Source of the DNA: Escherichia coli
Lineage (GTDB): Bacteria > Pseudomonadota > Gammaproteobacteria > Enterobacterales > Enterobacteriaceae
Length of the DNA stretch: 1,257 bases
Reading direction: 5' to 3' (one strand)
Assembly (NCBI RefSeq): GCF_003334815.1
Contig: NZ_QOWO01000102.1
Below are positions 1 through 1,248 of the stretch, piece by piece (positions within the stretch are counted from its first letter, which is position 1; each line of letters opens with the position of its first letter). The translations under genes and the position numbers were made by a program. Under the pieces are notes generated by a model, which ran no database searches, was not told the origin of the DNA, and saw only the letters and a list, made by a program, of their open reading frames with translations.

Positions 1-35
1 CTGTCGGCTTCCAGTGTCAGGGCCAGTTTCATCAT
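1..35 (-). CDS. 5' end only (11 codons, [11 protein letters not shown]...) of a downstream small gene that continues past the window edge; its position matches the YeeW-like gene that follows CbtA-family toxins
   Basis: Minus-strand ATG at 35..33 overlaps the toxin TGA stop at 34..32 (ATGA), and the frame stays open to position 1. The YeeW-like assignment comes from the conserved gene order of this cassette, not from the 11 residues themselves. Confidence 0.4.
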
Positions 36-406
36 TTCGCCTCCGGATACTTACCCAGGGTGATATTGTTCACCGTTCTGTAGTTGTGGCGGGTCATCAG
101 GCCTGTTGCCCGGCGAGCCCGGAGAATATCAATGCTGTTGATTAACTGCGACGAGGCTCCTGCGCTGAATCCCGGCTGGTCAGTTCGTACCAGTGCGTAT
201 TTTTCCACGAGAAAGTTCACTGCATCACACAGTGAAATGCCTGCCTCAATATGCTGCTCAATCACGCGTTCATCCACGAACGGTGTGTCATTCAGCGTAA
301 GGCTGTAATGCTGGCCCAGTAGTCGGGAGAGCAGAGTCTGCCAGATGGTGACGGGAGACGGGCAGCACGATACCTCCCGTACATGCGTGTCGGGTAATGT
401 TTTCAT
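32..406 (-). CDS. cbtA: CbtA/YeeV-family toxin of a type IV toxin-antitoxin system (124 aa), the cytoskeleton-targeting toxin family
   Basis: The 124-aa ORF from the track starts MKTLP and ends [11 protein letters not shown]. Its length and long conserved stretches ([80 protein letters not shown]) match the E. coli YeeV/CbtA family as I recall it. Start is ATG 406..404 with an AGGA about 11 nt upstream; stop is TGA 34..32. Which paralogue it is (yeeV, ykfI or ypjF type) cannot be settled without alignment; the length and C-terminus favour yeeV. Confidence 0.9.
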
Positions 407-495: not shown

Positions 496-864
496 TTACT
501 TTTTCGTTTCAGGTGTCGGATAAACAGCCAGATAAACGTAACCACAGGAGCCGAGGGTGTCTGCTTCACAGGTCAGCCCCTTCGCATACAGTGTCACGGT
601 ATGCTGATGGCGGGGATTCAGTTCACCACTGGTGAGCATTAATTTCAGTTGTTTCATCAGCAGCGGAAAGGCCTGGTCCAGAGGGTACGCATCCGCATCT
701 CTGAACCGGCCTCTGATACCGGCACGGTCGGCAAGGTAATGCAACCGGTTACCCTCCTGCACCAGACGGGCGCCGAAACAGGGCGTCACTGTGCAGGGTA
801 GTCCCCACCAGGGATGGTCGTCATTGTCATCGGGATGCGTTGTCCCGGAAAGTGTGTCTGACAC
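496..864 (-). CDS. cbeA: CbeA/YeeU-family type IV antitoxin (122 aa from a GTG start); cognate antitoxin of the CbtA-family toxin
   Basis: The track ORF 496..972 contains the sequence VSDTLSGTT...[36 protein letters not shown]...[19 protein letters not shown], which matches YeeU/CbeA as I recall it. The GTG at 864..862 sits 7 nt after GAGGA (876..872) and gives the family-typical 122 aa; the stop is TAA 498..496. The gene lies 89 nt upstream of the toxin on the same strand, the usual antitoxin-then-toxin order. Confidence 0.88.
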
Positions 865-871
865 GATAAAA

Positions 872-876
872 TCCTC
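872..876 (-). promoter_or_regulatory. Shine-Dalgarno element (GAGGA) for the antitoxin GTG start
   Basis: The minus strand reads ctgtGAGGAttttatcGTG, putting GAGGA 7 nt upstream of the GTG at 864..862. Confidence 0.55.
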
Positions 877-913
877 ACAGAAAATCGGTGAATGATAGTT
901 TAACGATGACGGG

Positions 914-1027
914 TCAGCCGGTGCACAGACCGGCTTCGGTGAAGGTGTATTCGTTGATGAGCAGGACCTCATCCACAGCGGCGTCTGAGCTCAGCCAGTC
1001 GTACTCGTTTTCCGGGTGACGGAACAT
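914..1027 (-). CDS. Hypothetical 37-aa acidic small ORF (MFRHPENEYDWLSSDAAVDEVLLINEYTFTEAGLCTG) between the YeeT-like gene and the antitoxin; not in the supplied track
   Basis: ATG at 1027..1025 overlaps the YeeT-like TGA stop at 1029..1027 (cTGATGttc), and the stop is TGA 916..914. Hand-translated from the sequence. About 28 of 36 third codon positions are G or C and G is enriched at first positions; most codons are E. coli-preferred (CTG, CCG, GAA, AAC, TAC, ACC, GGT, CGT, TTC, ATC). There is no Shine-Dalgarno of its own, so expression would need coupling to the upstream gene. Confidence 0.3.
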   Translation of the reverse strand: MFRHPENEYDWLSSDAAVDEVLLINEYTFTEAGLCTG

Positions 1028-1248
1028 CAGTTCAGGGTGACGCTCATCAGCCGGACATACGGACCAAAACTGTCCTTACGGCGTTCTGCAAACACGGCCA
1101 GCACACCGGGAATATCCTGCACTTCACGACCGGTATACGCTTCAGCACTGCCGTGCCAGCGGTATTTGCCGGTACAGAACGGAAAAAGACGGGATGCCGG
1201 ATGCTGACGGTGAATACGCATGGCTTCGCCACGGGTGATGATTTTCAT
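1027..1248 (-). CDS. yeeT: YeeT-like small protein (DUF987 family, 73 aa) conserved immediately upstream of CbeA/CbtA modules
   Basis: The 73-aa track ORF MKIITRGEAMRIHRQHPASRLFPFCTGKYRWHGSAEAYTGREVQDIPGVLAVFAERRKDSFGPYVRLMSVTLN matches YeeT/YkfH/YpjJ-type proteins as I recall them. It has an ATG at 1248..1246 and a TGA at 1029..1027. Its ribosome-binding site and promoter lie beyond the window edge. Confidence 0.85.
   Translation of the reverse strand: MKIITRGEAMRIHRQHPASRLFPFCTGKYRWHGSAEAYTGREVQDIPGVLAVFAERRKDSFGPYVRLMSVTLN

Follow-up and report, generated by a model that had tools for sequence, protein, structure and literature searches.

Which of two in-frame start codons begins the antitoxin gene of a yeeU-cbtA toxin-antitoxin locus, when the reading frame is open far upstream of the start used in its relatives? 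The question is raised by a 1,257-nt stretch of Escherichia coli DNA (contig NZ_QOWO01000102.1; hereafter the window), a segment of an E. coli island on which every gene lies on the minus strand. The mechanically called open reading frame (ORF) of the antitoxin runs from ATG 972 to 496 and encodes 158 aa. An in-frame GTG at 864..862 opens a shorter version, 864 to 496 being 369 nt, or 122 aa plus the stop codon. The longer and the shorter product would have sizes of 17.5 and 13.5 kDa, respectively. A first-pass annotation, made from the letters of the window, had proposed that the GTG is the real start and that the 36 additional N-terminal residues are spurious; its coordinates proved to be correct throughout on the minus strand, and every test that was run supported the proposal. 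We conclude that the antitoxin is very probably translated from GTG 864 and that the 158-aa ORF is a by-product of the history of the locus. We infer that ribosomes use GTG 864 in vivo.

Start codon of the antitoxin gene

The antitoxin (864..496; PGAP coding sequence (CDS) WP_001295723.1) is a type IV antitoxin of the CbeA/YeeU/YfjZ family (PF06154), as judged by homology to YeeU proteins of solved structure. PF06154.18 was detected on P0002, the representative of the protein cluster that contains the exact 122-aa sequence, and PF06154 was also found on the orthologue in E. coli locus L035. Two traits of the family are seen here: the gene lies immediately upstream of a CbtA-family toxin gene (PF06755) and, when read from GTG 864, the protein has a short N-terminus (0 to about 20 residues in the family) ahead of the W(W)GL motif.

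A Shine-Dalgarno sequence, GAGGA, is located at 876..872 and is separated from GTG 864 by a 7-nt spacer (871..865). ATG 972 has no such ribosome-binding site (RBS): the preceding 20 nt (GAGCTCAGACGCCGCTGTGG) contain no AGGAGG-like core of at least 3 nt at a spacing of 3-12 nt. The 36-residue extension (865..972), MRSCSSTNTPSPKPVCAPADPSSLNYHSPIFCEDFI, is rich in serine and proline, with 7 Ser and 6 Pro making up 36% of it, and overlaps a 37-codon ORF (1027..914) in another frame across 972..914 (59 nt). The in-frame stop upstream of the extension is at 993, which leaves 43 open codons ahead of GTG 864. By our own arithmetic (3 stops per 64 codons), chance alone leaves a stretch of this length open in about 13% of cases, and it is nothing unusual.

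One argument of the first-pass annotation, that the extension uses poor codons, had to be given up. A codon adaptation index (CAI)-like measure, calculated against the genome-wide codon usage of E. coli, was 0.60 for the extension compared to 0.62 for yeeU and 0.64 for cbtA, and 19% of 35-codon windows inside the three real genes score as low as the extension or lower. The only truly rare codon of the extension is AGG at codon 2. Since the index equals that of yeeU itself, codon usage does not discriminate between the two starts and was rejected as an argument against the extension.

The CDS assigned by the Prokaryotic Genome Annotation Pipeline (PGAP) in the two nearest genomes is 864..496. 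The equivalent start was assigned in 12 further E. coli copies with 86-97% identity, and thus in 14 of the 14 close E. coli copies examined that have an intact antitoxin. The annotated start of cbeA in E. coli K-12 is likewise a GTG, and it aligns to 864. The ranking from a search with 870..1020 was sampled at even intervals, and in none of the 60 RefSeq records so obtained does an antitoxin CDS lie over that stretch. The alignments with the structures 2INW (2INW_A, E=4.1e-74) and 2H28 (2H28_A, E=5.7e-73) begin at residue 2 of the chain, which corresponds to residue 38 of the long ORF. The YfjZ structures 2JN7 and 2EA9 match at E about 2e-41, and the N-terminus of YfjZ, a 105-aa protein, is shorter still. 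The GTG 864 start is therefore already known: RefSeq and the K-12 reference annotation use it, and so do the crystallised constructs.

Possible starts were scanned in 29 related loci with a recognizable GARLVQ motif, two of which are cut off before the start. The loci come from E. coli and other Enterobacterales, including E. albertii, Klebsiella, Citrobacter, Enterobacter, Kluyvera, Yokenella, Kosakonia, Serratia and Mixta. A start candidate bearing an RBS was found 15-30 codons ahead of GARLVQ; GTG 864 is 30 codons ahead of the motif and ATG 972 is 66 codons ahead. The upstream in-frame stop is usually met 16-41 codons ahead of GARLVQ, while the long form needs 66 open codons. In almost all relatives an AGGA or AGGAG core is located 5-9 nt from the aligned start, and the aligned start codon is GTG, ATG or TTG. 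In L006, L047 and L048 an ATG occupies exactly the position of GTG 864, as would be expected for an initiator codon and not for an internal valine.

A search for homologues that align across the extension returned only near-identical E. coli entries covering it, and the claim that the extension is spurious was not refuted. One or two in-frame stops interrupt the extension in L034, L042, L043, L045 and the O157:H7 copy L050, and in K-12 a TAG is found 9 codons upstream of the cbeA GTG. In four of the five stop-bearing copies the antitoxin is annotated from the same start, with a length of 122-126 aa; the remaining one, L034, is an unannotated contig fragment in which the contig end truncates the gene. 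In an alignment of 16 copies, variable columns at the first, second and third codon positions number 16/14/45 in the first 100 codons of yeeU and 8/10/8 in the 108 nt upstream, counted in the frame of the extension. The third-position bias of substitutions thus begins at the GTG, which supports GTG 864 as the start. The ratio of nonsynonymous to synonymous substitution rates (dN/dS) of yeeU is 0.16-0.17.

Origin of the upstream extension

The 37-codon ORF that overlaps the extension led to the source of the latter. When used as a tblastn query, it matched the 3' ends of 214-215-aa ORFs, with E about 5e-6 to 3e-9 against genes of Kluyvera, Serratia, Mixta, Pluralibacter and Yokenella. We refer to the corresponding gene as X. 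In Kluyvera, Pluralibacter, Yokenella and Serratia its place is between yeeT and yeeU; in Mixta it separates yeeU from cbtA. Intact X is also present in E. coli, and the P0253 protein ends in ...LENEYDWLTSDAAVDEALLINEYTFTEAGLRAG (...LYRQLENEYDWLTSDAAVDEALLINEYTFTEAGLRAG). The ORF of the window reads MFRHPENEYDWLSSDAAVDEVLLINEYTFTEAGLCTG, and 27 of its last 32 residues are identical to P0253.

Blastn comparison with L035, which carries an intact locus, gave two collinear blocks. Positions 1-231 of the reverse complement of the window match L035 2252-2482 and end at the yeeT TGA, and positions 232-1257 match L035 3033-4058. The clean 550-bp gap between the blocks (L035 2483-3032) removes the yeeT-X spacer and X codons 1-177, and places the deletion junction at 1026..1027 of the window. 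What follows is the end of X, codons 178-214 and the stop, in X's own frame (1027..914). It begins with a new ATG (1027..1025) composed of the A of the yeeT TGA and the TG of the X Leu178 codon TTG (TGATG). The remnant is followed by the native X-yeeU spacer of 49 nt (865..913), which has the same length in intact loci, as seen in the alignment of the 16 copies; in L035 X ends at 3145 and yeeU starts at 3195. The junction was detected in 3053 of 5426 complete E. coli genomes, and intact sequence at the junction point in 1883 genomes of the same set.

From these comparisons the course of events can be reconstructed. In the ancestral order the 214-aa gene X stood between yeeT and yeeU. A 550-bp deletion then took away the spacer between yeeT and X together with codons 1-177 of X, and left the last 37 codons, the stop and the 49-nt spacer. 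The leftover sequence, read in the frame of yeeU, is by chance free of stops back to 993 and contains ATG 972. An ORF finder that takes the first start after a stop therefore lengthens the gene. The 36 additional residues come from the final 59 nt of the remnant of X and from the 49-nt spacer, read in the yeeU frame. What is added here to the first-pass annotation is this origin: the extension is what the remnant of a DUF8835 gene, left by a 550-bp deletion, gives when read out of frame.

The junction itself is marked by dense substitutions. Comparison of window 1016-1026 with L035:3033-3043 showed that all remnant copies read FRHP there (FRHS in L039) and intact copies YRQL, with three substitutions in 11 nt, a higher density than in the rest of the remnant. 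They may reflect a different parental X allele or changes associated with repair.

Gene X and its remnant

The X family has 619 database relatives, with about 50% identity in Alphaproteobacteria and 70-85% identity between the Kluyvera X query and its closest Enterobacterales relatives. Judging from this distribution, X is a real, widespread family of 214-aa proteins. It matches phrog_5162 (function unknown) and is variously labelled, depending on the source, as 'antitoxin of toxin-antitoxin stability system', 'DUF8835 domain-containing' or 'hypothetical'. A Pfam scan of X gave nothing at E <=10 in the version used, whereas newer PGAP annotation assigns DUF8835. In an NCBIfam scan neither the long ORF nor X nor the 37-aa ORF matched a family, and a PDB sequence search with X gave no match. 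The full-length DUF8835 domain of about 214 aa is absent from the window, which has codons 178-214 only; the sequence between yeeT and yeeU is a remnant and not a member gene.

Could the 37-codon ORF nevertheless be a functional small gene, translated by termination-reinitiation at the yeeT stop and retaining C-terminal helices of X that are still useful? The geometry is that of classic translational coupling, as the yeeT TGA (1029..1027) and the ATG (1027..1025) share one base in UGAUG, and L044 retains the overlap as TAATG. The ORF is open in nine of nine remnant copies, including the O157 copy, which is 86% identical in this region. The frequency of the junction among complete genomes also speaks in its favour, as does the presence of the ORF in gene-caller output (P0018, on at least 1000 contigs). 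However, 37 codons are expected to remain open by chance at low divergence, and the pattern of substitutions does not indicate selection on the peptide: dN/dS over the last 36 X codons was 0.98 in remnants compared to 0.25 for the same codons in intact copies, and between the window and the O157 remnant dN was 0.18 and dS 0.065. In addition, no RBS of its own was seen before 1027, and 50-aa stop-loss variants of the ORF exist (P0017, L039). In a confident AlphaFold2 (AF2) model of X, with a predicted local distance difference test (pLDDT) score of 88.6, residues 178-214 take in the last part of a long helix (161-189), then one more short stretch of structure, a second helix, and finally a tail; as modelled they are not a separate domain. 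We therefore consider a functional 37-codon gene very unlikely and read the remnant as a neutrally drifting pseudogene fragment, which may be incidentally translated.

A more specific version of the same idea, slightly less likely again, is that the junction created a micro-gene, with reinitiation at the yeeT UGA giving a 37-aa peptide that still binds a partner or acts as a regulator within the YeeU/CbtA module. If true, such a role would explain why over half of the complete E. coli genomes carry the junction allele.

In the stop-losing copy L039 (L039:1194-1346) TGA is changed to TGC, and the resulting 50-aa ORF stops 10 nt short of the yeeU GTG. Its PGAP annotation is hypothetical protein WP_000488333.1; the 37-aa version is unannotated in all records examined.

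Evidence for a longer or a shorter antitoxin

Several observations weigh against the GTG 864 start, and some of them favour an antitoxin of 158 aa that is really made from ATG 972, either alone or beside the 122-aa protein, as an isoform with a Ser/Pro-rich tail. Full-text searches of the literature found no start-site experiment for yeeU/cbeA, and the supplements of the TRAINSPOTTER N-terminomics work contain no mention of cbeA, yeeU, yafW or yfjZ. The frame, open from 993 and provided with the ATG at 972, is also open in 11 of 17 close copies (the 16 aligned copies and L050). In the few stop-free remnant copies the dN/dS of the extension frame was 0.34, a value obtained from 10 non-independent pairs with very few differences; there may be weak constraint on this frame. 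Finally, forms of 154-158 aa are present in databases among submitted annotations.

On the other side, ATG 972 has no RBS, and the extension is interrupted by stops in five close copies and in K-12, the antitoxin being annotated normally wherever annotation is available. The frame of the extension lacks third-position bias. The N-terminus before WWGL is short everywhere in the family, down to the 105-aa YfjZ. The stretch itself is the 3' end of another gene read out of frame, and in intact loci ATG 972 lies inside X. On this evidence production of a 158-aa form is very improbable. Near the 5' end the frame offers just one further start candidate, the downstream GTG 789, which would give a 97-aa protein. 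It can be dismissed with next to no doubt: the protein would lose WWGLPCTV, a segment that nearly all relatives conserve and that the solved structures contain, the possible RBS of GTG 789 is only a GGA at 12 nt, and the position is not a start codon in L006.

Comparison with K-12 and with intact loci

The antitoxin encoded from GTG 864 is 89% identical to CbeA/YeeU of the K-12 CP4-44 prophage island, the antitoxin of CbtA/YeeV (2H28; the Shigella homologue is 2INW). The two genes share the length of 122 aa, the GTG start and the same 24 nt upstream with the RBS (AAGGA in K-12), and both loci have the gene order yeeT-yeeU-cbtA. They differ in the yeeT-yeeU spacer, which is 162 nt in the window and 73 nt in K-12. 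The K-12 locus bears an independent deletion of about 645 bp, which keeps the first ~8 codons of X (MSRIIATT...) and rejoins 24 nt before the GTG. Because of this deletion of its own, and of the TAG 9 codons upstream, the long ORF cannot arise in K-12. Upstream of the GTG, all three allele types have nothing in common beyond the last 24 nt, which include the RBS.

The K-12 yeeT-cbeA spacer (L003:3040-3112) contains a 16-codon ORF, MSRIIATTGPFLADFL followed by a stop, whose TAA lies inside the cbeA RBS, CTGTAAGGA. In other strains a 5' remnant of X is in frame with yeeU, resulting in antitoxin calls of 142 aa (P0036, 274 members; P0040, 353 members).

Compared to intact yeeT-X-yeeU-cbtA loci (L035, L040, L041 and CFT073), the window is 96% identical over yeeT and 91.6% identical from X codon 178 through cbtA, and has the same 49-nt spacer and the same yeeU start. 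It differs from them in the absence of the 550 bp that comprise the yeeT-X spacer and X codons 1-177. The case resembles generic 5' over-extension by longest-ORF calling in that the upstream ATG has no RBS and the extension is not conserved. Unlike a generic over-extension, however, it can be traced to one specific gene remnant, read out of frame.

Decay of the module took different forms in several strains (L051:1643-1830, L047:256-900, L049:913-1712). The YeeU copy of CFT073 and X of DETEC-P666 each have an internal stop, and in ETEC1732 an element of the IS21 family replaces everything downstream of nt 118 of the remnant. Near-identical copies of the locus, with 84-99% protein identity, were also found on very short contigs (L004, L005, L006, L007 and L034) of assemblies labelled Collinsella, Lachnospiraceae, Arthrobacter and Mesorhizobium caraganae; the stated coverage of the Arthrobacter and Mesorhizobium contigs is at most 1.5x. 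These copies are most likely E. coli contamination or the product of mis-binning.

Other features of the window and genomic setting

Upstream of the junction the window carries yeeT (DUF987; 1248..1027, 73 aa, WP_000692345.1), with PF06174 detected on the L035 orthologue. Downstream of the antitoxin, the CbtA-family toxin gene (PGAP CDS 406..32, 124 aa; PF06755 on the L035 orthologue) begins 89 nt past the antitoxin stop. It is followed by a DUF5983 gene, of which the window contains the 5' end, 35 nt long (1..35); the PGAP CDS starts at window position 35. The DUF5983 ATG (35..33) overlaps the cbtA TGA (34..32) as ATGA, an arrangement that suggests coupled translation of the toxin and the DUF5983 gene. 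In L001 PGAP annotates a shortened DUF5983 CDS with a start 3 nt further on.

No sigma-70-like promoter was found on the minus strand of the window by a promoter scan; the X remnant thus provides no obvious promoter for yeeU-cbtA. An Rfam scan of the window identified no family, the sole match, to sR12, being attributable to chance (E=0.88). PADLOC gave no match for X, YeeU, CbtA or YeeT. The predicted RNA fold of 1035..835 is not unusual (z = -0.97).

Megablast showed that many complete E. coli chromosomes contain the whole window, with 99.3-99.6% identity. Some match to it is present in 4935 of the 5426 complete genomes, the median number of copies being 3, and the yeeT-yeeU spacer occurs in these genomes in roughly 9,700 copies. 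E24377A (NC_009801 4885256-4885624) is one of the strains with this allele. In full loci the order of neighbours is Ag43 / DUF932 / antirestriction / RadC-JAB / DUF987 / YeeU / CbtA / DUF5983 / DUF957. Gene content of this kind is that of the CP4-44-like island module.

Length of the antitoxin in sequence collections

The first-pass annotation had further claimed that this locus is prone to over-long calling of the antitoxin. Long calls do exist, yet they are a small minority and were not seen in RefSeq/PGAP records. In a collection of 15 billion proteins the exact 158-aa sequence is absent, and the exact 122-aa protein occurs on at least 1000 contigs. Variants of 154-158 aa form clusters P0031 (98 members), P0033, P0035, P0037 and P0038, with about 215 member sequences in all. 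A tally over the clusters listed gave about 860 member sequences for forms of at least 140 aa, compared to more than 15,000 for the standard length of 118-126 aa.

The importance of the finding goes little beyond annotation hygiene. For the island family, it means that at least three versions of the yeeT-yeeU spacer occur, with an intact DUF8835 gene, with its 3' remnant or with its 5' remnant, and that the remnants are the source from which ORF finders yield 'antitoxins' of 142, 154 or 158 aa or 'hypothetical proteins' of 37-50 aa.
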